From contig PFRS01000001.1 in the NCBI GenBank assembly GCA_002788675.1, positions 170,308-234,307 on the forward strand: 64,000 bases of DNA, read 5' to 3'. The notes under the pieces are model-generated. The model made no database searches. It was not told the origin of the DNA and was given only the letters and a program-made list of their open reading frames with translations. The translations under genes and the position numbers were made by a program. This stretch comes from Candidatus Pacebacteria bacterium CG_4_9_14_0_2_um_filter_40_15. GTDB lineage: Bacteria > Patescibacteriota > Microgenomatia > UBA1400 > PJMF01. This document shows positions 8,392-57,700 of the stretch, in pieces; positions within the stretch are counted from its first letter, which is position 1, and each line of letters opens with the position of its first letter.

Positions 8392-8517
8392 CGTATAGTC
8401 GGTGATGTCTTTTCTGCAACCTGACGATAGTAGATGGAGCAACACCACGTATAGTCGGTGAGTCTTTTCTGCGACCTGACGTTAGTAGATGAAGAAAGGA
8501 TGACTCACCGACTATAC
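8392..8517. repeat. tandem 44-45-bp direct repeat plus 16-bp-stem hairpin overlapping the mreB stop codon
   Basis: Unit CGTATAGTCGGTGA(T)GTCTTTTCTGC(A/G)ACCTGACG(A/T)TAGTAGATG occurs at 8392-8436 and 8448-8491. Its inverted partner GACTCACCGACTATAC at 8502-8517 pairs with 8449-8464. Confidence 0.6.
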
Positions 8518-19655: not shown

Positions 19656-20357
19656 TTACAACTGTATCAATTGTTTTAGTTCTTCAAATACTGATTCTGA
19701 CAAGACTTCCTTTTCTACCAGTTCTTCTATTCGAGCATACGGTCTGTTAGCAACTATAGCCTCTGCACGCTTTGCACCGACTCCGGGCAGTGTATCAAGC
19801 TGCTCAACTGAACCAAAATTAATTGACACCACAGTTCCCTCCTCACCTGCATTTTGTGCTGTCTTTTCTGTTGCTGCAGACTGATGAGCTGTGTGTAGCA
19901 AAGTGGTGAGTTCGCTACACACATCCAAAACATCCTGATCTTCAAGAAATGGAATGTACACGCCTTCAGCATCATTAAGTCGATGCGCTAAATTGAGAGT
20001 TGTCTGGACAAAAATGCTGTCAGCATTACTCGCAAAACCACCTGCTGTGGTAACCAAGTCACCTACCCGGCTTCCGTTAGCAAGTTGATACATACCAGGA
20101 TTTGATACTGCTCCTGATATTGCAACCGTCACGTTCCGAGACTCCTCTGGAGGAGTTACTTTCTCATCTTGAGAATCAGCTTGAGGACAAGCAATAACGT
20201 CTGGTTCAAGGACTTCATACGCTTGAGTAGCACCAACAAATACCCAAGAGCCAAACCCCACACTACAAATGCCAAGTAAAAAGCAAAATGAAAGTATCAC
20301 CCTCATGAGGGTTTGTTTTGATAGACGTAACAATAAAAACTTAAGATCAGGAAACAT
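19656..20357 (-). CDS. comEA: ComEA: SLBB domain plus tandem helix-hairpin-helix DNA receptor
   Basis: N-terminal TM. SLBB region (VTVAISGAVSNPGMYQLANGSRVGDLV). C-terminal HhH pair (LDTLPGVGAKRAEAIVANRPYARIEEL). An alternative ATG lies at 20306. Confidence 0.8.
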   Translation of the reverse strand: MFPDLKFLLLRLSKQTLMRVILSFCFLLGICSVGFGSWVFVGATQAYEVLEPDVIACPQADSQDEKVTPPEESRNVTVAISGAVSNPGMYQLANGSRVGDLVTTAGGFASNADSIFVQTTLNLAHRLNDAEGVYIPFLEDQDVLDVCSELTTLLHTAHQSAATEKTAQNAGEEGTVVSINFGSVEQLDTLPGVGAKRAEAIVANRPYARIEELVEKEVLSESVFEELKQLIQL

Positions 20358-36545: not shown

Positions 36546-37262
36546 ATGACAAGGCGCCCACAAGACATGTATACTGAGGCTATGCAAATGGATAAGCGAC
36601 TTCCCTTTTTTATACTCAGTTTTGTGCTCATTGCCGTTTGGATCTCAGTTCCCTTCCTGTATACCTACTCTCTCCAGTTAGTGGCACTCACCTTTCTGCT
36701 TTTTATTTGGCTTCGTTTTAAACATAATCGAGAGAATGTTACTCAAATTATCCCCTCAAAAGGAAGCTCTGAGCTTATTCCCATTACAATCGTTTTTATG
36801 CTCCTTATCTCCGCTACCGGGAACACCCACTCTTGGGTGTACTCACTTACCTATGTGTATCTTTTTATCATGCTTTTCTCCCTGCCAAGAGGTACCGCAA
36901 TCATCATGGCCACCGGGACCTTATTACTCCAAGCCTTCTTAGTACACACATTTTCAGCTCAAGAACTCATTATTTTAATGAACATTCCAGTCATCACAAC
37001 AGTACTCCTCTTTGCAAAACAGCAGTATGAAAAAGCTACCCTCGAAGAGGAAATGCTTATGGAAGAAGACGAGCAACTTTCGTCCTCACTTACTGAAAAT
37101 GCTGCCTTGGAGTCATATATCAAGGAGTTTCTCTTACCTAAAACTGAGGTACTTTCGTCTCTAGAGGAGCCACAAACTGAACTCGAAAAAACACTCCATT
37201 CACAAATAACGTTGATCAGCACTGAGAGTCGAAAAATACTGGAGCGATCACAACAACAGTAA
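36546..37262 (+). CDS. polytopic membrane protein with acidic coiled-coil C-terminus (first gene of the surface-protein operon)
   Basis: Four to five hydrophobic helices, then a glutamate-rich tail (EEEMLMEEDEQLSSSLTE...). No family recognised. Confidence 0.5.
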   Translation: MTRRPQDMYTEAMQMDKRLPFFILSFVLIAVWISVPFLYTYSLQLVALTFLLFIWLRFKHNRENVTQIIPSKGSSELIPITIVFMLLISATGNTHSWVYSLTYVYLFIMLFSLPRGTAIIMATGTLLLQAFLVHTFSAQELIILMNIPVITTVLLFAKQQYEKATLEEEMLMEEDEQLSSSLTENAALESYIKEFLLPKTEVLSSLEEPQTELEKTLHSQITLISTESRKILERSQQQ

Positions 37263-37276
37263 CTATACAATTAACT

Positions 37277-38032
37277 ATGTCTACACGCACGCTCACCAGA
37301 ATTATTTTGAGCAGCCTTTGCTTACTCTGCCTGACGGCATTTTCTTGGCGCATATCTGAAGTTCAAGCAGAGCGACTAGAGTCCGACTCATACGTGATTC
37401 AATTTGGCAACTTCAACGTAACTTCCGGAGAAAAAAGTTCGAGTAACTACAACGTCACCGATACTGTTGGTCAAACCGCCGCCGGCGCGTTTGGAGAGTA
37501 CGGGACCTCTGGCTACTTTGTTGGGGCAGGTTTTCAATACATTTACCAAATAAAGACTTTTAGCTTCATCATTAGTGACCTCACTATGGATCTAGGAGAA
37601 CTAACTGACGGTGCCTTTGGCACTGACAATCACACTCTCGAGATAACTACACGAGGAGCTGGTGGCTACACAATCTATGCCTACGAACAACACCCCCTCC
37701 GCATTCCAACAACAAGCTACATAATTAATGATACAACTTGCGATGCAGGCACCTGTACAACCTCAGCAGCCAGTATTTGGACCAATCCCAGCATCGATGG
37801 CTTTGGATTCAATATTCAAGGTGATGACATTCCAACAGATTTCGTAAATAACACCTACTTCCGTCCATTTGCTAATGACGAAGCAGCAGCTACCATGCAA
37901 CCAGTAATGTCATCTTCCAATATTGCCTTGCAACGTACTTCGACGGTAACCTATCAAGCCGCAAAAGCCGGAGATACAGCCGCTGGTCAATTCCAAACTG
38001 CCGTAGTGTACGTCGCTGTACCAGGATATTAA
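37277..38032 (+). CDS. secreted WxL-like (small) surface protein
   Basis: Signal peptide. Homologous to the C-terminal domain of the 505-aa neighbour. Shared landmarks are L..LGEL, TTCDAGTC / ATCTGDSTASNC, GFGFNIQG / GFGYSLDN and a hydrophobic Y-rich C-terminus. Confidence 0.5.
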   Translation: MSTRTLTRIILSSLCLLCLTAFSWRISEVQAERLESDSYVIQFGNFNVTSGEKSSSNYNVTDTVGQTAAGAFGEYGTSGYFVGAGFQYIYQIKTFSFIISDLTMDLGELTDGAFGTDNHTLEITTRGAGGYTIYAYEQHPLRIPTTSYIINDTTCDAGTCTTSAASIWTNPSIDGFGFNIQGDDIPTDFVNNTYFRPFANDEAAATMQPVMSSSNIALQRTSTVTYQAAKAGDTAAGQFQTAVVYVAVPGY

Positions 38033-38034
38033 GT

Positions 38035-39000
38035 ATGAACAAAAAAAGAACTCAAAAATTCATTTCTGCACTAGCTCTTAGTGTGGTACTTGGCTTAGTA
38101 TCTTTGTACCCAAACTCTGTTTCTGCACAAGGTTTTAATCTTACGGTCACTCCTGAAGTACATTACATGCGAATAAAACCAGGCTCAAAGATACGTCACA
38201 CCATCACTCTCGAAAACAAAGGTGACGTAGCTCTGACAGTAACCCCCACAATCTATGACTTTGAAGCGGATGGTGAGTCTGGACGAGCAATCCTCAAAAG
38301 TGCCACCACATTCCCATATCTAGATCTCGAACACATTCAGAACAGCTCACTCACCATACCTCCACATAAACGAGCTCAGCTTGGGCTACTCTTTTCTGTT
38401 CCAGAAGATGCCCCCGAAAAGGAATACCCCCTTACGGTACTCTTTAAAAGTGAACCCGTGCAGTCTCAGACAGAGACTTCACAATCTCAACTAGTTGGTG
38501 CGATAGGAAGCAATCTTATTGTACTTATTTCTCAAGATGAACAAACTTCAGACTTAATAAATATTGATTCAATATCAATCCCCTTCTTTGTTGATAGTTT
38601 TAAAAAGGTTACCTTACAACCTAAGATAAAGAACAATCACTTTGCCGCTACAAACACAGCTGGAACGGTGATTGTGAAGAATATGTTTAACACTGAAGTT
38701 GCTCGATTTAATATTTTTCCAGATACAATCTTGGGATACAGTTCAAGAATACTTAGAGCCCTCAAGACAGAATTTCAACCAGATATCGAGCCAGAGGCTG
38801 TGCCTTTTGCATTTAAACCATCATTTCTTCTTGGTTTATATACAGTAGAAGTCAGCATTACTGCCCCCTATACCAGTGCATATTCTGATGAAGTAATTGC
38901 ATTCGACACTTTTACGTTCTTTGCAGTACCTATTATTCCAATACTGGTTGGGTTGCTGGGAATTGTGAGTGCCATTGGGTATGTGATATATAAGAAATAA
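38035..39000 (+). CDS. DUF916/DUF3324-like surface protein: signal peptide, Ig-like beta domain, C-terminal TM anchor plus KK
   Basis: FNLTVTPEVHYMRIKPGSKIRHTITLENKGDVALTVTPTIYDF Ig-like strand pattern. Single C-terminal TM (AVPIIPILVGLLGIVSAIGYVIYKK). Confidence 0.45.
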   Translation: MNKKRTQKFISALALSVVLGLVSLYPNSVSAQGFNLTVTPEVHYMRIKPGSKIRHTITLENKGDVALTVTPTIYDFEADGESGRAILKSATTFPYLDLEHIQNSSLTIPPHKRAQLGLLFSVPEDAPEKEYPLTVLFKSEPVQSQTETSQSQLVGAIGSNLIVLISQDEQTSDLINIDSISIPFFVDSFKKVTLQPKIKNNHFAATNTAGTVIVKNMFNTEVARFNIFPDTILGYSSRILRALKTEFQPDIEPEAVPFAFKPSFLLGLYTVEVSITAPYTSAYSDEVIAFDTFTFFAVPIIPILVGLLGIVSAIGYVIYKK

Positions 39001-39077
39001 ACTGGTACTTGAAGCCCACACCCTTTCCGTTTAGACTGGATCTAGGTCAAGAATTTGGTCGCTATTGTAGGTATGCT

Positions 39078-40526
39078 ATGAAACATCGTAAATCAAAAAA
39101 ACTCATTGTGTTATCAACTTTTATTCTTGCCATCGCAGTTGCAGGAAAATGGGCACAAAATAGCGAGTCTGCTAGTTTAACTTCTGTTTCGGTTACCGTC
39201 TCAAACCCACGTCCTTCTTTTAGAGGTGTACTTGGAGCTGGAAATACTGTTGGAACTTCACAAGTTATTATTAATACTTCTGGATATCCTTCAACTACAA
39301 CAGCTCAACTCCAAACTGATGACATTCTCTTAGTAGGTAATGCAGGTACCATGAGTCCTTATACCATTACTAATGTAGTAAGTAATTCACTGGCAAATAT
39401 TACTCCAGTCCTTGCTGCTGGTGATGCCGATACTTCTGATGATGTCATTTCAACCCAATCTGCCGTTCATACCGTCAGATTTACTACTGCTAACGCTATT
39501 TCAAATGGTGGGTTTAGAATTTTAGTTCCTGCTCATGGAACTGCTACTGATGCAAATGATGGTCTACCTGATCAAGGCGCCTTTGATTTCGGAACAGCTG
39601 CCCCAACCGTGACCTGTCCAACAGACATAACTGGGTATGATTTTGTTACAGGTACTGCAACTGCAAGTGCTGTAACAATCGGAAGTACTGACTATCATGC
39701 ATATGAGTGTCTGTATTCTGGAGTTGGTGCTATTGCAACTGTCTTTGATGGCACAACCAATGATGCTATATCTATTAACGACATTATAAATCCAGCACCT
39801 GCTAGTGGCCACACAACAGGCACCGCAGATTCATACAGAATCATCCTCCAACATTTAGACAGTTCATACACAGCTGTAGATAGTACCACTGTTGCTATTG
39901 GCGTTATAGAAGCTGTCCGTGTAACTGCAAGCGTCGCACCACAGATTACCTTCTCTATTGCTGGTGTAACCAGTGGATCAACTTCATGCGGAGTAACCAC
40001 AGACGTCACAACAACCGCAACTGCTGTTCCACTTGGTGAACTATCTATCGCTTCTTTCACAGATGCAGCACAAACGCTGACTGTCTCAACTAATGCTACA
40101 AATGGCTATGCTGTAACCGCTTTCGAGAGTGACCAACTTGGACTCGATGGAGCAACATGTACCGGAGATAGCACTGCTTCAAACTGTATTCCCGATTCAG
40201 TTGGTGACAATGCAGCACTCAGTCATACTGCTAATGATGAATGGAATACCACAACAGTAAAAGGATTTGGATACTCTCTGGACAACGCAGATGCAAATAC
40301 TGTCGCTTTCGAGTACACAACAGCTACCGGTACCTGTACTGGAACATACTGTGCAAAGCAATTTGCAGATAACGAGGATGGCCAGGCAGCGCAACAACTC
40401 TTTAGTAGCACAACAGTGGCAGACAGTGAAAATGTTGATGTCTGCTACAGAGCTGTGATCTCAAACGTACAAGCCGCTGGTTTTTATGAAAACTACGTAA
40501 CCTATACTGCTACTGCTACATTCTAG
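39078..40526 (+). CDS. secreted WxL-like (large) surface protein, Thr/Ala-rich
   Basis: Signal peptide MKHRKSKKLIVLSTFILAIAVAG (ATG 39078; TTG alternative at 39009). The C-terminal ~190 aa are homologous to the 251-aa protein. Confidence 0.5.
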   Translation: MKHRKSKKLIVLSTFILAIAVAGKWAQNSESASLTSVSVTVSNPRPSFRGVLGAGNTVGTSQVIINTSGYPSTTTAQLQTDDILLVGNAGTMSPYTITNVVSNSLANITPVLAAGDADTSDDVISTQSAVHTVRFTTANAISNGGFRILVPAHGTATDANDGLPDQGAFDFGTAAPTVTCPTDITGYDFVTGTATASAVTIGSTDYHAYECLYSGVGAIATVFDGTTNDAISINDIINPAPASGHTTGTADSYRIILQHLDSSYTAVDSTTVAIGVIEAVRVTASVAPQITFSIAGVTSGSTSCGVTTDVTTTATAVPLGELSIASFTDAAQTLTVSTNATNGYAVTAFESDQLGLDGATCTGDSTASNCIPDSVGDNAALSHTANDEWNTTTVKGFGYSLDNADANTVAFEYTTATGTCTGTYCAKQFADNEDGQAAQQLFSSTTVADSENVDVCYRAVISNVQAAGFYENYVTYTATATF

Positions 40527-40542
40527 TACTCAGAAAGAACAA

Positions 40543-41589
40543 ATGAAGACTGCCCGCCCAATTCACACTCTTAAAAAAATTGCTACCTTAGCTGACGCTT
40601 TAGGAGTTGGAACCTTACTGTTCTCGAATACAATTTTTGCTCAAGACTTCACTCAGACTGATGATACGGTAACCCTTACAGCCATCCCGCCAAGAGTTGG
40701 TGATCAAGAACCAATTAAGCTTGCTCCTGGTGCTAAAGAACAAGTGCAACTTAGAATTAGGAATAATTCAACAAAAGCCATAACCATCAACTCGGTTGCT
40801 CAAGATTTTATGCTTGATCTTGATGGACAAACCCCTATTCCACTTAACGAAGATTCAGGAAGTAGATGGAGCTTAGCAGACTGGCTCGTTGTCGCACCAA
40901 ATCAACAAACTATTGAACCACAAGAAACTGCTGGAACTTCTGTTCTTATCGAAGTTCCTGAAGATGCTCTCCCTGGTGGGCACTATGCAATGGTTACCCA
41001 CGAACCAACCACTGGAGTTGTTTCCGAAGATGGTGAATCAGCTTCTGTAATCAGTCAAAAAGTTGGTTCTCTCTTTTATGTTATCGTTGATGGCGTTATT
41101 CATGAGGAAGCCTTTATTCGCGACTTCTCATTTCCCCAGCTCACAGAAGTCGGACCTGTTGATTTTTCATTCTTTGTTGATAATCAATCTGATATTCACA
41201 TCAAGCCACAGGTTTCAATTGAGATCTATAACCTCTTTAACCAAAAAATTGACACTATCCAGATAGAGAGCAAAAATGTATTCCCATTATATAGTCGTGG
41301 TTTCTCTGGAAGTTGGGATCGTGTTTGGGGTCATGGTTTTTACACTGCCAAACTCATAATGAGTTATGGTGAACAAGGAAATGTTGCACTTGCTTCAACT
41401 ACTTTCTGGCTCTTCCCAGTCAAGATAGTACTATCAATATTGGTTATTATATTGGTCCTACTTGCAATGCTCATTTCAATCCGAAGACATATCTTGCACA
41501 AAAACCAAGATAAAGACAAACAGATCAAAGAATTAGAGGATCAGCTAGCTGAAGTCAGTAAAGATCAACTCGAAAAACACGAAGAATAG
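40543..41589 (+). CDS. DUF916/DUF3324-like surface protein with C-terminal TM and charged cytoplasmic tail
   Basis: Signal peptide, two beta-rich domains, TM (VKIVLSILVIILVLLAMLI), then a lysine/glutamate-rich tail. Confidence 0.45.
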   Translation: MKTARPIHTLKKIATLADALGVGTLLFSNTIFAQDFTQTDDTVTLTAIPPRVGDQEPIKLAPGAKEQVQLRIRNNSTKAITINSVAQDFMLDLDGQTPIPLNEDSGSRWSLADWLVVAPNQQTIEPQETAGTSVLIEVPEDALPGGHYAMVTHEPTTGVVSEDGESASVISQKVGSLFYVIVDGVIHEEAFIRDFSFPQLTEVGPVDFSFFVDNQSDIHIKPQVSIEIYNLFNQKIDTIQIESKNVFPLYSRGFSGSWDRVWGHGFYTAKLIMSYGEQGNVALASTTFWLFPVKIVLSILVIILVLLAMLISIRRHILHKNQDKDKQIKELEDQLAEVSKDQLEKHEE

Positions 41590-41595
41590 TTACAT

Positions 41596-44358: not shown

Positions 44359-45117
44359 TTATTTGACTAAGAAGCCTGAAAAGGCTGACTGAAATTGTGA
44401 AAGAACTTTCCGAGCTGAAATAGCATTTGGATAGTAATAAGCAACTAAACCGTTATCTTCTTGCAATGTATCCCGAAAACGATCATAAGCCGTAATAAAC
44501 ACCTTTTTCTGTTGATCAGTCAGACCATCCCCCTCGGCAAATTGTGCTAGCAGCTGACTAACCTCAGTGCTAATACTTGAGTAAGCAGTGGCTAAGTCAC
44601 TCAGTGAAAAGTTTCGGATAACGGTACTTCTCTCAAAGCCAAATTTCCATGCATCTATAGAGAAAAGTGCTATTGAGTGTGGATACATTTTTTTACACAG
44701 CAGGTATAGCTCTTGAGAAAGTGAGCCTGGGACACAATATACGCCACGACTTAATTGAATCGCATGCTCTGCTACGAGCTGTGAGCGTAGGTATCTAAAC
44801 TGTGGATCACTGCTGGGTGCCTCTTGAAAGACGATACACTCCCATTCGCCAGAGTACGAATCCCATTTAGAATCTAAAGCCGGAAATTGGGCGTTGAGCT
44901 GCTCGATACCTTTGTCTGTTAAGTAATACCTCAGCTCCTGCCCTATCTTCTCGGTGGAAAAGATTCCTGATTTCGATAAATAGTGCAATATTGAACGAAC
45001 ACCGCCATCAGTTGTATTTTGTAGCAATTGCTGAGCTGCATCAGTTGTAACAAACGCATCTTGACTCCCTAAAACTGGGTACGCAAGCATTGCTAGTGAG
45101 AGGGCATTTTTTTTCAT
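44359..45117 (-). CDS. PaaX-like (winged-helix) transcriptional regulator-domain protein
   Basis: SKWDSYSGEWECIVF...QLSRGVYCVPGSLSQELY resembles the PaaX central and C-terminal W..W / GVW..P motifs. Lies in an AT-rich island divergent from the 18-kb gene. Confidence 0.4.
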   Translation of the reverse strand: MKKNALSLAMLAYPVLGSQDAFVTTDAAQQLLQNTTDGGVRSILHYLSKSGIFSTEKIGQELRYYLTDKGIEQLNAQFPALDSKWDSYSGEWECIVFQEAPSSDPQFRYLRSQLVAEHAIQLSRGVYCVPGSLSQELYLLCKKMYPHSIALFSIDAWKFGFERSTVIRNFSLSDLATAYSSISTEVSQLLAQFAEGDGLTDQQKKVFITAYDRFRDTLQEDNGLVAYYYPNAISARKVLSQFQSAFSGFLVK

Positions 45118-45140
45118 ATTAGTTATAAGTTTTTAGATGC

Positions 45141-45173
45141 TATTTTCGCATATATTCGCATTATATTCGCACA
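45141..45173. promoter_or_regulatory. three direct ~10-bp repeats (TATATTCGCA) in the promoter region of the PaaX-like gene
   Basis: TTCGCA cores at 45145, 45155 and 45166, 25-55 bp upstream of the minus-strand start at 45117. Operator/iteron-like. Confidence 0.35.
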
Positions 45174-45631
45174 TTTTCCAGGTTTATCATAGGTGTCGGC
45201 CTCTATTACCGAATCCACATTACAGTAACAATGCAATTTTAGAATAAATATTTAGGCATCAAAGTAGTACATTATTAATACATTATCCACATTAAGTAGT
45301 CACCGAAACTCAAAAATCTTAATTATTGTTAACAACATTTTGCTTTTTATGCAAATTTCCTCGAGTATAATCTTCTGTTTTTCCAGATGATTAGTTTTAC
45401 CTTCACATAGTATAGCTTTTCTAAACAAAATAACAATTACTTTTTACTGTGCATAAATGCCCCTTTTCTTCATGTTTTTCTGCTAAATCCAAAGAAAACA
45501 CGATGCCGTGATTACATTTGATATGCATTGATAGCCCCAGAATGTTTATCGCACGTATTCATACTATGCCTGGAAGAACTTTTTTTTGTTCATTGCACTT
45601 TTGCCAGAAAGCCCACTCATTCTCCAGACTA

Positions 45632-45659
45632 TTGACCCGAGTGTCTCGAGTAATATACA
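45632..45659 (+). promoter_or_regulatory. candidate promoter of the 18-kb giant gene (TTGACC-16-TATACA) with CTCGAG palindrome in the spacer
   Basis: Read by eye. It lies about 75 nt upstream of ATG 45736. Confidence 0.3.
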
Positions 45660-45735
45660 CTGATATGAGTCAAGTCTAATGGGTCTAATGAATCTGGTAG
45701 CCAAAATTTCAGAACACCCATGCAAGAAAAAATAA

Positions 45736-48700
45736 ATGACTGCCCAAAGCAAATATCTTTCTAGCATTTTCCTTTCACTTTCCACATTTTTGGAAAGTGC
45801 TTTGTCACACACACACGAGCGCGATGAAGCGCACGCTGTATTCACTGAGTTCGTTGCATCCAAAGCTTCACTGTCATCACAGTGGCAGCTGAGTGAATTA
45901 CACCGGTTTTTAACCAATTCAGCTGCTCACCAGACAGTAAGCCCCTCCGTGCGAGATGCTTTGATGATGTTTGTCCAAAAATATCCACCCTACCAGACTA
46001 GCGTTTTTCTTCACGAATATCTTTTAGCACTCAAAGCTGACAACTGCTCAAGCTCAACCATCAAAAATTACCGCAGTGATATCAACCAATTTGTTAGTTT
46101 TACCAATGAAACTGAGGTAGAAAAAGCCTTCACAAAACCCAAAGCTGAACTTTTCATTGCTGCACAGGCAAATAAAGATTTGAAGGAATCCTCTATCAGG
46201 CGTAAGCTCGTGAGTATTGTTCAGTTCTCTCTCTGGTTGCAGGCAGAGGGTGTCCTCCATTCAGTTTCAGAAATCGAGACTCTCTCAGACAAATTACCCC
46301 AACTTATTGAGAAAGCACCTCAAAAAGATATTCCAATCCAGGAGCCTACTCGACGATACTCTTCTGTGCCAACCTCAAGTGCATCATCATTTGCCACCGC
46401 AAAACACACTCTACACAATCAATCTAACGCCCAATCTAGTCAAGATATACGATCACGTATCAAATCAGGTCTGGCAACCATTCAAAATAAGATCCAACCT
46501 CAAGCAAAAAAACAGGCTCTGCCTTATCTAAACCTGGCTATTATCATGCTTTTTGCAGTCACACTCGGCTTCTTTGGCTATCGCCAGTTTGTGGCTGATG
46601 CAGACAAGCCTTTAGCCTACCCAACCAGTCCTACCAGGCCAAACCGCGTACTCCAATTCCAAGGTCGCCTTACTGACACCAGCCAAAACCCTATTACTAC
46701 CGCCACAGACATGGCTTTCCGCCTGTACGACTCTAATTCTGGAGGCACTCTGCTCTGGAACTCTGGCACCTGTAGTGTGACTCCAGATCAAGACGGTATC
46801 TTTAATGCCGATTTAGGCAGCAGTTGTGGAACTGAAATTTCTGAAAACGTCTTCACCGAGAACTCCAACGTCTGGCTCGAGGTCGAAATCGACACTGAAA
46901 CCCTTTCTCCTCGACAAAGCATCAAGACCGTTCCGTACGCGCTTAACTCTGAAACTCTCCAAGGCTATCCCATAGAAGCAACAGGTGCCGCTATAAAGAA
47001 CACCGTGGTTACTATGAATAACAATGGCGAGGTGATCTTCGGTGAAGTTTCGCCAACTCTTAAAGCTGTTTCGGGTAATTTCTCGATTGAAGCCGAAACC
47101 CTCACTCTTAAAACAGCGGCTGGCTCAAACGGTAATATTGCCCTTTCTCCAGATGGCACTGGCGACGTACTAGTAAACTCCGACCTTTTTGTTGATGGCT
47201 ATATAGCTGCTCCCGGTGCCACACTCAGTGCCACCTACGCTGGCGGCACTGCCCTGATTGCCCGAGGTGGACCAAGTGGATCCGCTAACATTCAGGTGTG
47301 GCAGAATAATGCCGGTAGTGCTTTAAGTGTGGTGGATGAGAGTGGGAATATTGGAATTGGAACAAGTAACCCAAATGAAGCATTAGAACTTGGTTCAGGA
47401 AAATCATTACGCTTTAATTCGTTAGATGCAAATCACATAAGATTTTATGACAGCACTACTGAAACAGCATTCATTCGAACAGAATTCTCGGGAGTCGGTC
47501 CAACTGGAAATGATTTAATTTTGGGATCTGATCTTTCTTCACAAACACTGGTTCTTGAAAGAGGTGGAAATGTGGGCATAGGCACTAACGATCCTTCTGC
47601 GCATCTCCAGATTGCTAACAAAGGTGAAGCAACTGGAACATACCTACTCCGCGTTGATGGAAGTGCTGCTGCAGGAGGCTTCAAGGCTTTTGGGAACAAT
47701 ATTGAATTACTTACATACCGAGGAAGCATGAATGAATTGAGAGTTGGTGGCGCTTATCTAAGTACTAATCCTCCAGCAAGTGGCGCAATCATTGAAGGAA
47801 ATGTAGGTATTGGATCAAGCATACCTGCCCAAAAACTCGACATCGTCGGCAACCTCCAATTCTCCGGCGCCCTCATGCCATCTGGAGCTGCAGGAACCGC
47901 AGGCTACGTTCTGCAATCTAATGGTATTGGTGTGGCTCCAACTTGGGTAAGTTCAGCTACTCTACCTGGATCTGGCCTCTGGGACGTGACTGCAAATGTC
48001 TTTCATCCTAAAGAAGCCTATGGTGACGTTGTTGATCTTGCCATTGGTGGCACCTCAACTGCAAGTGCAGATATTTTGCTTCAGAGTAATGGCAGAGCAT
48101 ATTTTGGGGGAAATGTAGGTATTGGAACAGCTTCTGGTTCATATCCACTTCAAGTTGAAGGAGATGCTCTTATTCATACTGCCAGCAGTTATCTTTACTT
48201 AAGTAGAACAAATACCAATAACCGCATGAACTATCGATCTTGGGACATTGATTATGGTGCTCGAGCTGACATTAGAAATATTAATGCTGCTGGTATTCTT
48301 TCTTTCTGGACTGGTGGAACAGCAGCTGCTAACCAAAGAATGACTATTGCTGCAGATGGCAACGTCGGTATCGGCACCACTTCTCCCGTTGGCCTTCTTA
48401 ATGTCGAAGGAGCTGCCATAGGAAAAGCCCTATCTATCCTGAACGAAACGGGTAATCAGGCAATTTTTGTTGCCTCTGCATCGGGAACGAACAGATTTAT
48501 TATTCAGAATGATGGCAATGTTGGAATTGGCACCAGTGCTCCAACTGCCTTGTTCCAAATCAGTGATCGGTGGCAAGGAACAAACTCAACATTTGGATCT
48601 ACCAACTCTTCGGGAGCACAACTCAACTACACGGGTAGTGTCGCTACTCCAATCTTCACCTTCACCGGGGATACTGATACAGGTATAGGCAGAGGTGGGG

Positions 48701-51700
48701 CAAATATTCTTAACTTCTTTACCAATAACACTGAGCAAGTGCGTATCGCATCGGATGGCAACGTCGGCATCGGCACCACAAACCCTCAAGAAAAATTAGA
48801 TGTCTTGGGTGATGTGCGAATTAGAAACACTTCAACTAACACTTATTACTTTAACTACAACACCGTGCATGGTGATGGCCGCCAAGAGCTAGAACATATT
48901 GGCGCTGGAGGAACTAGTAGAGTTTTCGAGGCAAATGGTGGTAGAGCCATAGGATTTGGCCCAGAATGGGGAGCATCTGCTTGGGGAATCACTGCTCCTA
49001 TCTTAACAACTTCTAACTCACTTGCTTTAGTTGGTCACATAGTAGGTGGCGGTTTGATCACGAGCGGTACCCATAAAAGTTTGCTTATTGGTACGCCAGA
49101 ATCAAGTCCCACCACAGGTTATGGTATTACTGATACTATCGACCTAGGAACAGTATCATTTGCCTCAAATACTTGGTCTGGAACTCGCCCTGCAATGAGG
49201 TATACCGCTTCTGAACACAATTTCAGAGTTAACTCTGGTACAGGAAATACTAACCCAGGAACTTCAGCTCTCTTTATTGATGCAAATGGAAACATCGGCA
49301 TTAGTTCTGAAACCCCAATCGGTTTATTCAATGTTGATGGCGCCGCCATCGGCAAAGCCCTCGTCATCCTCAATGAAACCGGCAACCAAGACATCATCGC
49401 AGCAAGTGCCAGTGGCGTAACCCGCTTCCGCGTTGCACAAGATGGCTATGTCTACGGTGAGCGCTTCACCGACATTAGCAACAGCACCTACTACGTTGAC
49501 CCTGCAGCTGTAACCACTTCTGCAATTCTTAATGGAAACGTAGGTATCGGAACAACTACAGCCAACTACACTCTCGACATAGACGGTGAACTCAATCTAA
49601 CGGATGCCATCCGTGTTGCAGGAGACGCAGGCACCTTGGGTTGGTTCCTCACTTCATCCGCTGGTGGAGTTAACACCTGGACCGACCCTGCCAGCATTAC
49701 TGGTGCTGGCTACTGGGCTGAAACAGATGGCGTGCTGCATCCAAAGTCTCCTTATACCAGTGTTGTCGACCTCGCTCTTGGTGGAAATTCTACTGCGAGT
49801 GCAAATATTCATCTTCAATCTAATGGTAAAGCTTACTTTGCGGGGAATGTGGGCATTGGTACTAACTCTCCTATCGGCCTTCTTAACATCGAGGGAGCCG
49901 CCACTGGCAAAGCCCTAGCCATCCTCAACGAGACAGGTAATCAAGCAATCTTCACCGCAAGTGCAAGTGGCGTCAGTAAGGTTACTATTGCTAACTCTGG
50001 TAATGTTGGTATTGCAACCACAGCTCCTCAAGAAAAGTTGGTTATTGCGTCTACTGCTGATCAAAATACTAGATTACATCTAAAAGAGACGGGGATAAGC
50101 TGGTCAAGACCAATCGACGGCTTTTACGGATGGTCGTCCACAGCGGGATCAACTTCAATTACCTCAGATAATGATGTGAGTAACACTCCTGCCCTGACTT
50201 ACAATGCTTATACAAATCACATCTTCCAAGTAAACCAAGGCACACTCTCTCAAGGATTGTTTATTGGAAGAGACAGTACCAGCGGCTTTGCCAAAGTTCG
50301 TGTTGGTACAGGAAGCACGAGCGCCACATCCTCACTACTCAGTGTTAATGGTAGCGCAACTATTGGAAATGGTTACATCAGTAGTACAGCTCCAACAAAT
50401 GGCTTACTTGTTCAAGGCAATGTGGGCATTGGCCTTACAAACCCATCATATCTACTCCACGTAAATGGTGCTTCACAAATTGATACTCTGCGCATTGATC
50501 AAAACGCTAGTAATACTCGCCTTTTTACAGGTGCCACTTTAGAACTTCAATCAAATATTGGTGGAGCATCATCTGCTGTTAAGATCAGCAGAAACGGTGG
50601 AACTGCTATGAGTTCTGGTTACACATTACTTGAGCTAGGTGGATCCGATATTGCTTCCATGCCATCAGATGGATACTTACTAAAAGCGTATGATAAATTC
50701 GTTATTCAGGGTTCTGGCAACGTCGGTATCGGCTCAATCACCCCTGCCTACAAACTCGACGTTACTGGCGACATTAATTTGACCGGTGCCCTTCGAGTAG
50801 CTGGCGATGCAGGTACGAGCGGGTACATTTTAACCTCAACCGGAGGCAGTGCTAACCAATGGACAAATCCAGACGATATCTTCACCGCTGGCCTCTGGAA
50901 AGAAACAAATGGTGTGTTTCATCCAAAGACTCCTTACACTGACGTTGTTGACCTTGCATTGGGTGGTAACTCGACTGCGAGTGCAAATATTCATTTGCAA
51001 TCTAATGGCCAAGCATATTTTGGAGGTAGTGTCGGCATAGGCTCCACAACTCCAGGAACAACCCTCGATGTAACAGGCACCGGCCGCTTCTCTAGCACTC
51101 TGACCGCTTCCAATGGCCTTACTCAAACAACAGGTGCTCTTAACTTGACTGCTACCAGTGGAGCTCTCAGCTTATCTGGACTAAGTGCTTCTTCTATAAA
51201 TACTGGCGCTAATGCTCTTACCTTTACATCTAGTAACTTCAACACGACTGGTACTGGTATCAACACCACAAACATTGGTGCTACTACAAGAGGTACCGGT
51301 GCATTCACAACTCTTGCTGCTAATAGCACAGTTACTCTTACTGGAGTAGCAACTGGCACAGACAACACCGTCCTCGTTCTTAACGGTTCTAACCAAGTGA
51401 TTAGTGATGAAATTGATCCTAGAGTCTGGGGTACTACTTTAGTTGATGGTTCTGGTACTACTAACTATCTACCTAAGTGGACTCCAGATGGAGATTCACT
51501 TGGCAATTCTATTGTCTATGACAATGGTACTAATGTAGGAATTGGAACAAACAATCCAGGTGGTAAATTGACAGTTGCAGGATCAACAGGTATTTCGAGA
51601 TCTGTAAATATTGATAATAGTGAAATTAAATTTAGAGGTGATGGAGTTGCTCATATCTCAATATTTGGCCCAGATACAGGCAGATCAAATCTTCAAATTA

Positions 51701-54700
51701 ATGTGACGAGTGCAAGCGCTCTTATGGGAACAATTGGAACAAATATAGCAACCTTTGCAACTACTGGAAATGTCGGTATTGGAACAACTGTCCCAGGAGC
51801 TAAGTTAGCAGTTTCAGGGGGGAATATCTTACTTGATGCTGCTCAATGGATTGGTACTGGAATTGGAAATGGGCTTGAGTTAGGTTCTGGATCAACATAT
51901 ACAGCAAACAACGCTTTAGGTAACGTTCTGGTTAATATAGATAGTAACAATAATGCTACAGCCTCATATTTTGCAGTCGCAAAGGATAACACTGGAACTT
52001 CAGGAACTGAGTTATTTAGAATACAAGAAAATGGTAACGTCGGCATCGGCTCCGCAACTCCAGCATACAAACTCGACGTCGTCGGTGACGTCAGTCTCTC
52101 AGGTGCAATCCGCGCCGGAGGTGATGCTGGATCTAGCACTTTCCTACTCACTTCAAGTGGTGGCGGTGTTAACACATGGACAGATCCTGCTGACCTAACC
52201 GATGCAGGTCTTTGGAAAGAAACAAATGGCGTCTTCCATCCAAAAACTCCTTACACTGATGTTGTTGACCTTGCACTTGGTGGTAACTCTACTGCGAGTG
52301 CAAATATTCATTTGCAATCTAATGGCCAAGCATATTTTGCTGGCAATGTAGCAATTGGCACCACCAGCCCAGTTTCTATTGGCGGAGCACAAGTACTTAA
52401 TGTGTATGGTACAGGTGGAGCAAATGTAGTATTAGGCGGCAATAATGGTGTGGTTGGAGGTACTGCAGGCTCTGTTCAGTATGGTGGTAGAACTGCTATT
52501 TACTTTTCAGTTGGTAACAATAACTATGTTAATGGTAACGACAGAGTTGCTACAATTAACGCCAGTGGAAACTTTGGAATCGGCACCACCTCACCAATCG
52601 GCAAGCTCAATGTAGAAGGCGCAGCAATTGGCAAAGCCCTCACCATCCTCAACGAAACCGGAAATCAAGATATCCTGGCTGCAAGTGCTAGTGGCACAAC
52701 TCGCTTCCGCATTGCTCAAGATGGACACGTCTATGGCGAGCGTTTTGTTGACATAAGTAACAGTAGTTACTTTGTTGACCCTGCTGCAGTTACAACATCA
52801 GCCATTCTAAACGGTAATGTAGGTATTGGAACAACTACCGCTAACTACACACTTGATGTTGATGGTGAACTCAACCTCACGGATGCTCTGCGCGTTGCAG
52901 GAGATGCCGGCACAAGTGGCTACTTCCTCACATCTTCCGCCGGCGGAGCTAACACCTGGACAGATCCAGCCAGCATCACCGGAGCTGGTTTTTGGGATGT
53001 TACTTCAAATGTACTGCATCCTAAGTCTCCATACACCGGCGTAGTTGATCTTGCAATTGGTGGTAACTCCACAGCTAGTGCAAACATTCATCTTCAATCT
53101 AACGGACAGGCATACTTTGCAGGAAATGTTGGCATTGGCACCAGCACCCCAAACACAGCAAAACTTGTACTAAGAAATTCTAGCACTGAAGATATCTTTA
53201 ACGCATTTGATGCCGGTACGGAAGTGATGACTATTATAGATGGAGGAAATGTTGGTATTGGCTCTATAGCTCCAGGAACAACCTTTGATGTAACAGGCAC
53301 AGGTAGATTCTCAAGCACCCTGACACTTAACGGCGTAGCAGCTGGCACAGATAACACTGTCTTAGTTCTCAATGGCAGTAACCAAGTAGTACAAGATGAA
53401 ATTGATGCTAGAGTCTGGGGCACAACTCTTATAGATGGATCTGGAATTGCTAACTATGTAGCCAGATTCACTGATGCAGACACTCTCGCCACAGGCGTAC
53501 TCTATGATAATGCAACAAATGTTGGTATTGGCAGCACCTCACCAACAAGCAAACTCGACGTCCTTGGCGCCATCAACGCCAGCGCTGGCTACTACTATGG
53601 TGGAACTGGTTCTCCACTTTCTGTTGAACTGACTCGCACCGTTCCAACTACTGTTGATGACTATGTTGAAATTGGTAACTTTAATTTAGCAAATGGCGCA
53701 CATAACTATAGAATATCTGTAACAGTATCAGATACAGCCTTTTCAGTTTCAAAACAATATATTGTTCCAGTTAACTATAACGGTACCGCTAACACCTATA
53801 AAACACTTCTTCCAACTGTTGATGGAGGAGCTTATTCAGGAAATAACTACGAAGTTGACCTGAATTCAAACGCAAACGTAGCAACGTTACGCATCAGAAG
53901 AACACAAGGTACAACAGCTGGAACTGCTTACGTAAGAATTGAATCAGTCGGCAAAACAACAGATGTCTTCACAGCCAGCTCTGCCACCGGCAGCACTACT
54001 GCTCCAACCGCTTACTACAACCCACTAACTCAGAATGTGGCTACTGGTAATGTGGGTATTGGCACTGCTTCACCTTCAGAAAAACTTGAAGTATATGGCT
54101 CAGCTGCAAATATTGAAATCACAGCTTCCTCTGGAAATGGCGGCATTCGATTTGCCAATGCTGCTGGTCGTTTCCAAACATATTTAGATGGTTCAACAAA
54201 CAACTATGTTATAGATAGTCTAAACGGCGGCATCAGCCCAAGTTTAGCAGTCGCATACACAACTGGCTATGTCGGCATCGGCACCACCGCTCCAGCAACC
54301 CAGCTCGAATCAAAATCACTCACAGGTGTTAACAACTACTTCCGCCTTAACACCACCGATGCTGATAACGCCACCTCTGCAAATCACCTTCAGTTTGCAG
54401 AAGCAGATGTGGTCAAATGGGACCTCAAAACCATCGGAAATAACGCAGATCGGCTGATTTTGGATAGTGCTAGTGTTAGTGATGTTATGACTTTCAACCA
54501 AGATGGAAATGTTGGAGTTGGAACTACAGCTCCAGCAAATTTATTTGAAGTAAATAATGGCATCCTGTCAATTAAAAATGATTCAACCTCACCAGAACTC
54601 AGAATAGAAAGAGTTGGCTATAATTACTGGAGATTCTTTAACTCTGCCGGTCATTTTTACACTCAACCAAGTAGCGGCAGCTCAGACTACTCAATTCGAG

Positions 54701-57700
54701 ATGCATCAAATACTAGTTTATTTATAGTTAAAGGAAACGGAAATGTTGGTATTGGCACCACGGGACCAGGTGCACGCCTAGACGTTTCTGGCAGTGGCAC
54801 AAATAGTAAATCTCTCATCCTGCGATCTGGAGAAGGCACCTCTGGATTTGGAGACAGCGAGCAAATCCAATTTGCATACAATGGCGGAATCGAATATTCA
54901 CAAGCTATTCGAACACGCCATAACTCCTCTGCCGACAGTGGCAACTCAATCGATTTCTACACCTGGGACTTCGGCACCGATGCTGTTGGCGATGCAGGCA
55001 CCCTCCACTCCATGAGTATCAACGGTGGCAACGTCGGCATCGGCTCCCTCAACCCAACAGCAACCCTGGATGTGGTCGGTTCAATCAACTTCAACGCCAC
55101 CACCATAACCTTCGACGACACCAACCTCAGTTCTGCCATAACCCTAACAGACGTGGATACAGGCTTTGACAGTGCCGACACCGGCATAGTCGACGCCATT
55201 AACACTGCGTACAACGCAGCCATTGGCTCATCTGGTAGTGGTGGAATGTGGACAGACACAACTCCTGGTGCAGGCTCTGGAATCATCTACCCAAGCAGCG
55301 CTACCGACGACTTTGCAGTAGGTGGAACTGCCCTTGCTGCTGCCTTCTCGGTTGATGAGTCAAACAATCTTGTCAGAATTGGTGATGGAGCTGGATCAAG
55401 TGGATCACTTAATATGTACTCAAGTGGCGGTGATACTGGTTCAATAGTCTTTAATACTTCGGATCAATGGGATTTTTCAGGTGGGGATGTTGACTTCAAT
55501 CAAGGTGTCGCAATTGGTCCAGGAATTGGAGAACCTGCTACAGACAGAACACTCGCGGTCGGCACCAACTTTGCTGTAGACAATACCACCTACGAAATCT
55601 ACTCCTCAAGCACTATTACTTCACCAACTTTAACTGCAGATAGAACTTCATACGGTATGTATATGAACATGATAAACAATAAAACTGAAGACATAGCTGG
55701 TGGCTTTGATTCAGACGCCTATGGTGTGTATGGAAACGTCTACACAACTGGAACAAGCACCTTCAGAACTAACACCGGTGTCTACGGATATGCCAGAAAT
55801 GACAGTACTGCGACTGCAGATCTTGGTACCCTAACTGGTACCTCAGGTATTGCCTACCAAAATGCTATTTCTGGAACTATCCCAACAGCTTATGGTTTAT
55901 ATGGAGCAATCCAGGGTGATACTGGAGTTGGTTCAACAAGCATCATTACTCAAGCATATGGAAACTATAATCAGGTATACGCTTACAATTCAACGATTCC
56001 AACAGCATATGGTAATTTCAATAGAGTTAGAACAATTAATTCTTACTCTGGAGATATTACAAATGCATATGGAACCTACAACGAAGTTTATGTTGATTCT
56101 GACGTGGGTGGAGATATAACAAACGGCCGAGCTGGATACTTCATCACCAACAAACGCGCGACTGCAACTAACATGACCAATGCATACGGTGTGTATATTG
56201 ACGCAAATTCTGGAACCACAACCTACGGTGCAGCAATTTATGCCGATGATGTCAATGCGACCAACAACTACGGCATCTACTTGAATGCCCTCAACGCCTC
56301 AGCTCAAAACTACGGCATTTGGGGCGATTCTGGTGACTGGATTCTTGATGCAGATGGTGATGGCATCGCAGGTGGCACCGGTGCCGGTGGCGATTTAGTA
56401 CTTGGAGAAAGCCAAGACTTCGAACTCTACCACGATGGCACCAACTCTTATGTTAATAACCTGACTGGCGACCTCTATATCCAAAGTGGCAGTAATGATG
56501 TGATTTTGGCAAATACTGGAGGAAGTGTGGGTGTTGGAACAACTAGTCCTGCTGCCGTTGCTTTCTTTGGTGGTGGTAAAACGCTAAATCTATCTGATAC
56601 TTCCACAAATTTACCAAATATTAGATTGCAGAATGCAACGAAAGATTTCACACTGGGTGTAGATGGACAGGCTGCATATATGTATAGCGCAAGTGCATTG
56701 GATTATAGGTTCTATACTAGCGGAACGGAAAAATTCCGCATCGCTACCTCCGGAAACGTCGGTATCGGCTCAACCTCACCTGGCTATCTCTTCGACGTAG
56801 CCGGTGGCACCGGCATCGTTGGTCGCTTCTCTGGCAGAGTAATCGGTGCAGATGCTGTTAACTCTGATGAATTTGTTACTTTAAGCCAGCTTACGAGTGG
56901 CACTGGTTCATACTGGACCAGAACTGGCACAAACCTCTTGCCTACTACAGCAGGTGATGATGTCTACTTACCAACAGGATCAGTCTTAGGCGTAAACTAC
57001 GACCCATCAACTATTACTGGCGGCGTAGCCGCATTTAATGGGAATGTGGGAGTTGGAACAATAACTCCAGGACAACTTCTTGATGTGGTAGGAGAAATCG
57101 AGCTGGCTAACTACATCTACTTTGCAAATGCAGCTACCGAGTATCTACAATGGAATAGCTCGGACTTTATCCTTTCGGACGACCTACTGGCTGCTTCAAA
57201 TGGTGCAAGTAACCTAGGTGCAGACGCAACTCGATGGGGTGGTGTGTATGTGGGTAGTTCGAATGTACATATTGGTGCTACTGGAAATGAAGGTATCGTT
57301 GGGTACGACACTACCAACAGCTGGTTAACTTTTGATTCAAATGGAGATGGTGCTCAAGAAATGAAAATTGAGAGTGCAGGAAATGTAAGTATCGGAACAA
57401 CCAGTGCCTTAAGTGCAAAATTCTACGTGCACTCCGGAACACTCGATAACGTCGCTAGTTTTAGAAGCGGCGATGACTTAGCTCGTTTTGAAGTACGCGA
57501 TAACGATGGCGGTGGATTCTTTAATGTAAAAGATCAGTACGTTTCTATTGGTGGTGGAAATTCGTTGAGTATAGAAAACGTTAATATTGATACAGCCAAT
57601 GGAAACGTTGGTATGGGAACAACTGGTCCTGGCGCAAAACTACATATTAGTGGGGCTGCTGCAAACACCTTTATAGATGGCGACAGTGCAAGTGGAAGTC

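Follow-up and report, generated by a model that had tools for sequence, protein, structure and literature searches.

The closest described relatives of the protein reported here are the Xer recombinases (XerC, XerD, XerA and XerH; PF02899), soluble proteins of ~300–400 amino acids (aa) that clamp their core site. Most base-specific contacts of XerH come from its N-terminal four-helix bundle, which inserts into the DNA major groove (PMC5241119). The giant proteins share the core-binding (CB) domain of these enzymes but have no catalytic domain and so no C-clamp; their CB domain, often in tandem copies, is instead tethered to a membrane helix that leads into a giant ectodomain, and they cannot be recombinases.

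Tyrosine-recombinase parts in non-recombination roles are known from ALOG, MrpR/SroF and Ndc10, and the present family extends these to a membrane-tethered bacterial case. The ALOG plant transcription factors, whose CB domain was shed from a DIRS1-type recombinase, likewise have a CB domain without a catalytic domain, but they are eukaryotic, soluble and nuclear and carry a zinc-ribbon insert, whereas the giants are bacterial and membrane-tethered, with a single Cys (C104) and no insert in the CB domain (aa 86–181). The repressors MrpR (YopR) and SroF of SPbeta-like phages are soluble, phage-encoded and retain a degenerate catalytic domain, whereas the giant family is chromosomal, has no relatives among the viral contigs searched and keeps the CB domain only.

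ToxR, CadC and TcpP share the predicted topology of the giants: a DNA-binding-type domain in the cytoplasm at the N-terminus, a single transmembrane helix (TM) and a C-terminal extracytoplasmic part. Those regulators have an OmpR-type winged helix and a sensor of 100–300 aa in place of a CB four-helix bundle and ~5,700 aa, and to our knowledge no bitopic regulator has a sensor domain that comes anywhere near the latter size. RodZ consists of an N-terminal cytoplasmic HTH that binds MreB, a single TM and a periplasmic domain; as in the giants, the cytoplasmic N-terminus of this type-II membrane protein is a DNA-binding fold, although RodZ is small and its fold (XRE HTH) is unrelated. A long G/T/S/N-rich fibre-like ectodomain is shared with giant surface proteins and trimeric chimeric fibres of episymbiotic or predatory bacteria (Bdellovibrio MAT fibres, PMC10769870); the NCBIfam model Bdello_MAT_N (NF053851, trimeric fibre) scored 21.7 bits at aa ~303–364 of the giant protein, far below its cut-off of 60.

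Patescibacteria (CPR) account for much of bacterial diversity and probably live attached to host cells, yet the anchoring and regulation of their giant surface proteins, and the connection of these proteins to the cell interior, are almost entirely uncharacterised. The family described here offers a concrete handle on these questions: a cytoplasmic domain of DNA-reading ancestry, an obligate PaaX-fold partner and a conserved promoter/operator region. Neither full-text literature searches nor papers on CPR protein families and giant genes yielded a description of this architecture.

Architecture of the giant protein

All positions refer to the window, i.e., the whole 64,000-nucleotide stretch of DNA that was analysed. 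The giant gene has the following features:

45736..63675, + strand: giant open reading frame (ORF), 5,979 aa, a single uninterrupted frame from its ATG
45736..45990, + strand: four-helix N-terminal region, aa 1–85, probably a degenerate extra CB copy
45991..46278, + strand: Xer-type core-binding (SAM-like) domain, aa 86–181, with the Pfam match at aa 93–172 (nt 46012–46251)
46279..46515, + strand: low-complexity basic linker, aa 182–260, net charge +6, mostly predicted disordered (aa 196–233 and 255–262)
46516..46584, + strand: sole transmembrane helix (signal anchor), aa 261–283
46585..46725, + strand: post-TM motif of the ectodomain base, LAYPTSPxRPNRxLxFQGRLTD, highly conserved, aa 284–330

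The original prediction, made from the sequence letters alone, had placed the N-terminal SAM-like domain of integrases at residues ~88–175, and the Pfam search confirmed it: PF02899 (Phage_int_SAM_1) matched aa 93–172 over profile positions 2–83 of 83 (E-value 1.3e-8, 35.4 bits), above its gathering score of 22.3 and near the full model length. The related model PF13495 scored 27.0 on the same domain (cut-off: 27), and these two were the sole Pfam matches across the 5,979 aa. Matches to the NCBIfam models of XerC, XerD and XerA were confined to their first ~88 positions. The region aa 86–181 forms a canonical four-helix CB domain; a single-sequence search of the PDB gave no match, such a comparison needing profiles.

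That no catalytic integrase domain follows was likewise upheld. The catalytic model PF00589 (active site R-K-H-R-H/W-Y) matched nowhere in the whole protein, and an HMM of the Xer catalytic domain constructed from 13 Chloroflexota Xer proteins found nothing in the giant protein, the six-frame translation of the window or 153 relatives (best E-value 0.27). Without the catalytic tyrosine domain, strand exchange at paired inverted core sites would in principle be impossible for the giant protein. We consider it highly probable that the window protein, in the architecture given above, starts with a non-catalytic DNA-reading domain of an Xer-type recombinase.

Exactly one hydrophobic segment was found in the 5,979 aa (aa ~261–283), in agreement with the lone TM at aa ~262–283, followed in one frame by ~5700 extracellular aa, that had been proposed; the coordinates and residue numbers given earlier for the protein were accurate. 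The N-terminal 261 aa have a pI of 9.2 and a net charge of +5, and the ectodomain of ~5,700 aa is acidic (pI 4.4, net −240). The protein is thus predicted to be a single-pass membrane protein of type II (N-in, C-out). Within the cytoplasmic part the basic charge lies in the linker only, the CB domain itself being net neutral (pI 6.9). The second giant ORF of the window (20444..27316) also has a TM, preceded by a short tail only.

The first 85 residues begin with a conserved MTAQxxY and comprise four helices in the AF2 model (aa 3–22, 26–42, 52–61 and 70–82). Profile alignment with hhalign related them to the first CB domain of relatives with two CB copies (Prob 91.7, E-value 7.9e-7) and gave no significant result against the protein's own CB domain (Prob 2.7). 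Since the support arises only via the first CB of the two-CB relatives, we grade the assignment of aa 1–85 as a degenerate additional CB copy as probable.

Taxonomic distribution and sequence conservation

The same aa 1–330 were found in ~60 Patescibacteria species genomes, where the ORFs continue for 1,000 to >3,800 aa, so that the N-terminus does recur in the giant genes of related genomes. The layout in these genomes is identical: CB domain, basic linker of ~75 aa, single TM and giant ectodomain. A search of representative proteins, with matches counted as clusters at 50% identity, returned 1,496 matches at E ≤ 1e-3, 437 at E ≤ 1e-10 and 91 at E ≤ 1e-30. The layout was inspected in the 150 best of these and is shared by almost all of them, the longest having 7,697 aa. 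One or two CB copies were present in 147 of 153 inspected proteins (two copies in about a third of the family), and 78 of the 153 reach at least 2,000 aa. A TM followed within 260 aa of the last CB copy in 123 of the 125 proteins that were sufficiently long (median gap 76 aa), and the net charge flanking it is +2 before and 0 after the helix family-wide. PF02899 matched 26 of 27 sampled CB copies of the family.

Mean pairwise identity among 43 relatives was 0.42 (without gaps) in the CB domain vs 0.14 in the linker, which supports purifying selection on the CB domain across the family, as judged from sequence comparison. The invariant polar residues T108, Y112, D115, R156 and K157 lie within motifs that align with XerD and XerA. 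Family CB domains are basic, with a median net charge of +5 and pI of 9.6, compared with +3 and 9.3 for real Xer CB domains.

These data also bear on the integrity of the reading frame. In 25 loci the aligned region starts with residue 1, at the earliest ATG of the ORF, and a conserved promoter and leader lie 40–100 nt upstream of this ATG; the start codon is supported by these comparisons. The only in-frame alternatives between M78 and the TM are four GTG/TTG codons (aa 149, 159, 168 and 211), with no ATG among them. It is very improbable that the architecture is an artefact, either of a wrong start or of a frameshift or assembly error by which two distinct genes, a small one for the CB domain and a giant one, would have been joined. 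Such an error could be suspected from interrupted versions in three short metagenomic contigs (a break after aa 516 in L001, a nonsense codon in L002 and a duplication/frameshift in L005) and from one 249-aa relative without a TM (P0005). The interruptions, however, fall at differing places, after or within the same layout, and dozens of independent assemblies are continuous through the CB domain, the TM and thousands of further residues; the conserved promoter and leader upstream of the ATG, and the lack of an ATG between M78 and the TM, also argue against it.

Genomic context and regulatory region

Upstream of the giant gene lie the following features:

44359..45117, − strand: transcription regulator with a PaaX fold, 252 aa, adjacent to the giant gene and divergent from it
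45118..45735, no strand assigned: divergent regulatory intergenic region, 618 bp (490–850 bp in 65 loci)
45632..45661, + strand: conserved sigma-70-like promoter of the giant gene, TTGACC-N18-TACACT
45674..45697, + strand: operator-like leader repeats, GTCTAAT-GG-GTCTAATGAATCTGG

The AF2 model of the 252-aa neighbour (pLDDT 88.3) had E. coli PaaX (8a39) as its top Foldseek match (277 columns, E-value 1.8e-7, prob 1.0), followed by 3l09 and 3kfw, and the model contains all three parts of the PaaX fold, i.e., wHTH, Cas2-like middle domain and helical C-terminal domain. The sequence models scored below their cut-offs (NCBIfam PaaX TIGR02277: E-value 5.5e-6, 26.1 bits, cut-off 264.6; Pfam PaaX_M: 15.3 bits, cut-off 24). 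The PaaX-like gene was present and divergent in 64 of 64 loci, these being the loci with enough upstream DNA and a detectable PaaX-like match. No paa (phenylacetate) genes were found within the window.

Conserved words in the intergenic region include TTCACATA (40 loci) and GTTTTCCACA (17 loci), and TATATTCGCA occurs twice at 45151–45171. The 15-nt core of the leader repeats was found in 47 of 68 loci, in most of these 42–58 nt before the ATG. A structured RNA was considered for the intergenic region and leader: the Rfam search of the 618 bp gave no match, and there is no covariation evidence because the GTCTAA/TTAGAC arms never vary. A protein operator seems the more likely identity of the repeats. 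The comparison of the leader with the E. coli PaaX operator (TGATTC-N27-GAATCA) was unconvincing, since the leader contains one TGAATC without a partner half-site. Inverted repeats around the promoter, which bear on the idea of an invertible promoter with phase variation driven by a host recombinase, are weak only.

Origin of the N-terminal domain

One of two explanations offered in the original prediction was that the N-terminus is the scar of a mobile-element integrase recently fused in-frame to the giant gene, with the AT-rich stretch at 43.7–45.7 kb as the inserted island. The domain is of integrase type and GC is slightly lower at 43–46 kb, as such an event would have it. The values at 43.7–45.7 kb (0.37–0.39 vs ~0.42 elsewhere) are nevertheless ordinary for non-coding DNA, and the stretch consists of the conserved PaaX-like gene and a pair of long intergenic regions, with synteny that begins at LeuRS in ~40 genomes; it is conserved chromosome and not an island. 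The genes farther upstream (36546..41589) are also conserved; they received no Pfam assignment even at E 0.5, with a weak WxLIP_PGBD hint.

Further evidence speaks against the fusion itself, which we hold to be extremely improbable: the architecture and synteny are identical in the ~60 species genomes, the CB domain is under purifying selection, no catalytic remnant was found upstream or anywhere else in the six-frame window by HMM, no tRNA lies at the border, flanking repeats occur at chance level only, and relatives are absent from all 2.9 million viral contigs searched. Because the start and the PaaX-like neighbour are common to hundreds of giants, the CB head is a domesticated module rather than a scar. 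The family presumably arose by ancient capture from an Xer-like gene.

Putative function of the CB head

The other explanation, in which a giant adhesin has recruited a DNA-binding domain as its cytoplasmic tail, holds for the architecture, which is family-wide and under purifying selection, while the function that went with it, such as tethering of the nucleoid or a partner, stays conjectural. The reading we prefer, at a little under an even chance, is that a domesticated non-catalytic CB module forms the cytoplasmic head of giant anchored surface fibres and has a membrane-tethered regulatory role; that this regulation works by DNA binding is more tentative. Most likely, we infer, the module holds DNA or a regulator to the membrane and so connects transcriptional control with the surface fibre. 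The basic CB domains of the family, the retained Xer motifs and the XerH precedent would fit a tethered DNA-reading role, as would the predicted topology and the conserved PaaX-like partner, promoter and repeats.

The CB module would in this case either keep its ancestral job, the major-groove recognition of a short DNA sequence, or hold a DNA-bound partner, and would act as a membrane-tethered regulatory head topologically analogous to ToxR and CadC. Together with the PaaX-like regulator and the GTCTAA-type leader repeats, the head would make transcription of its own locus depend on whether the surface fibre is assembled, in contact with a host or under tension. If the ectodomain is trimeric, as the weak MAT-fibre hint may suggest, three heads would be clustered at the membrane. 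Isolated recombinase CB domains without the catalytic-domain clamp are generally weak DNA binders, and the net neutral charge of the window's own CB domain (pI 6.9) counts against regulation through DNA binding. The PaaX-like regulator could by itself account for the leader repeats, which leaves no link between them and the CB domain, and the size of the ectodomain also speaks against this model.

That neutral charge would suit the main rival, which we regard as possible but unlikely, namely a protein-binding adaptor resembling RodZ, in which the CB fold has lost DNA binding and become a cytoplasmic docking domain. Candidate partners to which it would tie the giant fibre are the PaaX-like regulator (through membrane sequestration in anti-sigma style), the cytoskeletal protein MreB (encoded at 8505..9527 of the window) or a factor for secretion or assembly. 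A partner switch of two proteins would agree with the strict pairing of the giant and PaaX-like genes, RodZ shows that a DNA-binding fold can be reused in this way, and the invariant surface residues could equally mark a protein interface. Against an adaptor, the CB domains of the family as a whole are strongly basic, like genuine Xer CB domains, and their conserved residues fall in motifs that recombinases which bind DNA conserve as well.

Of the 153 inspected relatives, 6 have a TM and ectodomain without a detectable CB copy, so the fibre can do without this domain, which counts against the preferred reading. Some relatives (P0104, P0132 and P0142) have a short tail without CB, and these, like the short tail of the second giant ORF, would be compatible with a passive topology or anchor element, i.e., a helical N-terminus without ligand that keeps the N-terminus inside and fixes the signal anchor while the huge ectodomain is exported co-translationally. 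We find this improbable, as Xer motifs and invariant polar surface residues were kept while the linkers diverged to 14% identity, and a third of the family has duplicated the CB domain in tandem.

A more specific version of the preferred regulatory head is a contact-sensing transcription switch, in which the giant fibre of an episymbiotic Patescibacterium would report host attachment or tension through the membrane to the Xer-derived CB head; we regard it as doubtful. The head might, still tethered, bind the GTCTAA leader repeats upstream of the gene that encodes it, or might alternatively be freed by proteolysis (cf. Notch and SREBP) and act with or against the PaaX-like regulator. If true, such a switch would add a new class to the one-component transmembrane regulators of bacteria, and no earlier prokaryotic case of a solo CB domain domesticated as a transcription factor would be known.

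The giant CB proteins are named “site-specific integrase” in GenBank, at sizes of 1,000–5,200 aa. This name is wrong, and as a systematic database error it can inflate the mobile-element counts of CPR genomes.

Core-binding domain of the giant protein

As originally predicted, the giant surface protein is encoded in one uninterrupted frame:

45736..63675, + strand: giant ORF, 5,979 aa from ATG, uninterrupted

The SAM-like N-terminal domain of integrases, proposed for residues ~88-175, was recovered by Pfam as PF02899 (Phage_int_SAM_1) over the full model length at aa 93-172 (E 1.3e-8, 35.4 bits; gathering score 22.3 bits), and the related PF13495 scored exactly at its cut-off. Both lie on the core-binding (CB, SAM-like) domain and were the sole Pfam matches along the entire protein; the NCBIfam XerC, XerD, and XerA models matched it with their first ~88 positions only. 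The AlphaFold model of the N-terminus (built on five homologues) was confident over aa ~10-190 and matched the integrase N-terminal domain 3nrw and XerA with a Foldseek probability of 1.0. With 27 CB copies of the family combined into a profile, the PDB search returned XerA, 3nrw, and XerD, with S-T-I-K-N-Y-R-S-D-I aligned over N-T-L-N-A-Y-R-R-D-L and S-S-I-R-R-K-L-V-S-I over S-S-A-R-L-L-S-A-V of XerD; the family motifs lined up likewise with Chloroflexota Xer proteins. The giant protein genuinely belongs to the CB/SAM-like domain family. It does not qualify as a tyrosine recombinase, since the defining catalytic domain was searched for and is absent: neither the giant protein nor any of 153 relatives matched an HMM of this domain built from 13 genuine Xer proteins, and neither did the window translated in all six frames, where a search for an upstream catalytic remnant had originally been suggested.

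The top sequence match of the family CB profile was chain 14 of PDB 9i5v (residues 9-94, E 2.1e-5). This chain of 401 aa, whose deposited name is 'ribosome-associated translation inhibitor RaiA', is apparently a fused or wrongly delimited ORF with a Xer-like N-terminus.

In relatives with two CB domains the copies are placed exactly at residues 1-85 and 86-181 of the window protein, and profile-profile comparison linked residues 7-81 to the first of them (Prob 91.7, E 7.9e-7). Direct profile comparison of residues 1-85 with the giant protein's own CB was not significant, and on these grounds residues 1-85 were rated a probable degenerate CB copy.

Distribution and membrane topology of the family

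The genome of the window is patescibacterial (Minisyncoccota), of Pacebacteria/Microgenomates type. Orthologous giant genes were checked for the same N-terminus, and ~60 Patescibacteria genomes (scan with one genome per species) encode matching first 330 residues in ORFs that carry a hydrophobic helix near residue 250-290 and run on for 1,000 to >3,800 aa, usually up to the end of the retrieved DNA. An exhaustive search with the profile against 1.84 billion representative proteins yielded 1,496 matches at E<=1e-3, 437 at E<=1e-10, and 91 at E<=1e-30. Among 153 proteins inspected, 147 contained CB copies (one in 98, two in 50) and 78 were at least 2,000 aa long, the longest having 7,697 aa. The transmembrane (TM) helix follows the last CB, at a median gap of 76 residues, in 123 of the 125 proteins of sufficient length; the CB domain as cytoplasmic tail of a giant protein, one of two readings originally offered, is thus a conserved layout. 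Since mean pairwise identity in 43 close relatives was 42% without gaps in the CB vs. 14% in the linker and 20% in the first 85 residues, the CB is, by this comparison, under purifying selection.

The window protein has one hydrophobic segment (aa 261-283, predicted at ~262-283), preceded by a basic part (pI 9.2) and followed by 5,700 very acidic residues (pI 4.4), from which an N-in, C-out topology is predicted, in line with the proposed extracellular part. The post-TM region weakly matches the N-terminus of Bdellovibrio mosaic adhesive trimer fibres (PMC10769870), which hints at a trimeric fibre; such a fibre would cluster three CB heads.

The full-text literature search, including papers on CPR and giant genes, retrieved no description of this architecture, and the ALOG paper, which surveys the CB domain, makes no mention of a bacterial form tethered to the membrane. 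The combination of a domesticated CB domain with a bitopic regulator-like layout is new; both the architecture and its distribution are firmly established and would surprise recombinase or CPR specialists.

In GenBank, family membrane proteins of 1,131-5,466 aa are called 'site-specific integrase' or 'phage integrase N-terminal SAM-like domain-containing protein' (P0016, P0019, P0040, P0099, P0007). Several matching genome records bear plainly wrong organism names; the MAGs of many relatives are labelled 'uncultured Pseudomonadales', Limisphaerales, or Methylococcaceae and the loci are clearly patescibacterial. The giant gene is broken at differing points on short metagenomic contigs (L001 2482-6434; L002 5765-9148; L005 4461-6529; L004 433-1182), by a break after aa 516, TAA for TTA just past the post-TM motif, or a frame-shifting tandem duplication before the TM, and one 249-aa form stops without a TM. 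These interruptions could be sequencing errors, pseudogenes, or population-level on/off variation; frameshifted forms would give a soluble CB-only protein.

Translation start and upstream region

The protein alignment begins at residue 1, the first ATG of the ORF, in 25 loci, and the N-terminus MTAQxxY is conserved. The following features lie upstream:

45683-45697, + strand: leader motif GTCTAATGAATCTGG, 15 nt, ~20 nt past the promoter; a second GTCTAAT precedes the motif in the window
45632-45661, + strand: promoter TTGACC-N18-TACACT, conserved among related loci
44359..45117, - strand: PaaX-like gene, 252 aa, PaaX fold by structural match

The leader motif was found in 47 of 68 loci, mostly 42-58 nt ahead of the ATG, and is kept although the proteins share merely 35-59% identity. 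It occurs as direct hexamers phased at 9 bp or as the palindrome GTCTAA-N9-11-TTAGAC, with invariant GTCTAA/TTAGAC arms, and had no match in Rfam. We read it as a candidate protein operator; its possible binders are the PaaX-like protein and the CB module, alone or together.

The divergent intergenic region (45118-45735) spans 490-850 bp here and in 65 related loci, which is unusually long by Patescibacteria standards, and contains the conserved words TTCACATA (40/65 loci) and GTTTTCCACA (17/65) as well as a tandem TATATTCGCA x2 (45151-45171) adjoining the PaaX-like start. The 117-aa antisense ORF overlapping the giant-gene start (45564-45917, - strand) is probably no gene, since its sole tblastn matches (L001, L006) face the conserved giant-gene start.

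Genomic context

The top structural match of the PaaX-like model (pLDDT 88) was E. coli PaaX over its full length; the sequence scores under the curated PaaX cut-offs. In all 64 loci having a match (three loci were exceptional, two of them without upstream DNA), a homologue precedes the giant gene on the opposite strand, with 491-907 bp between the two. Synteny extends farther upstream: LeuRS, five genes lacking a Pfam assignment, and a Big_13/CarboxypepD_reg protein each keep their place in 31-49 loci. A search of 2.9 million viral contigs found no relative. The GC content of 0.37-0.39 at 43.7-45.7 kb, originally regarded as an AT-rich island supporting insertion, is due to two long intergenic regions, and this stretch, with its conserved PaaX-like gene, is conserved chromosome. 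Recent fusion of a mobile-element integrase, the second reading originally offered, was rejected in view of the PaaX-like pairing, the synteny, the absence of viral relatives, the GC explanation, and the family-wide architecture.

In the window the syntenic block (36546-43653) comprises the five Pfam-less genes between LeuRS and the PaaX-like gene, then the 685-aa Big_13/CarboxypepD_reg protein. Two of the Pfam-less genes (37277..38032 and 39009..40526) show 50-80% identity between genomes and 40543..41589 gives a weak WxLIP_PGBD hint; the block may represent a cell-surface apparatus tied to the giant gene. The 705-bp non-coding gap (43654-44358) that separates the Big_13 gene from the PaaX-like 3' end holds a perfect 11-nt inverted repeat (44107-44117/44130-44140) and a ~45-nt stretch (about 44187-44231) whose counterparts in distant loci (L065, L066) are 82-84% identical; this could be a terminator or small RNA.

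Putative function of the CB module

In XerH the N-terminal four-helix bundle supplies most base-specific contacts in the major groove (PMC5241119), and non-catalytic or solo recombinase folds repeatedly became DNA-binding regulators (ALOG, MrpR/YopR, SroF, Ndc10). Family CB domains are as basic as those of real Xer proteins (median net +5, pI 9.6); the window protein's own CB is neutral and its linker +6. Because of these precedents and the basic family domains we favour, by inference, a membrane-tethered head binding DNA or a regulator. Such a head would couple the giant fibre to the regulation of the very costly gene that encodes it, jointly with the PaaX-like regulator. In topology it would resemble ToxR, with a different fold. 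The main rival is a RodZ-like role in which the CB docks a protein; a purely passive anchor is unlikely, since the polar surface of the CB is conserved and the domain is tandemly duplicated.

Additional features of the window

The tRNA-Leu(aag) called by ARAGORN within the giant ORF (50551-50635) is almost certainly a false positive. A second giant ORF (20444-27316, - strand; 2,290 aa) begins with a short tail and a TM and lacks a CB domain. Its C-terminal region carries a Peptidase_S74 domain (endosialidase chaperone) and an H-type lectin match scoring below the cut-off, which make it tail-fibre-like. It adjoins ComEA (19656..20357) and a split ComEC (17309..19202).
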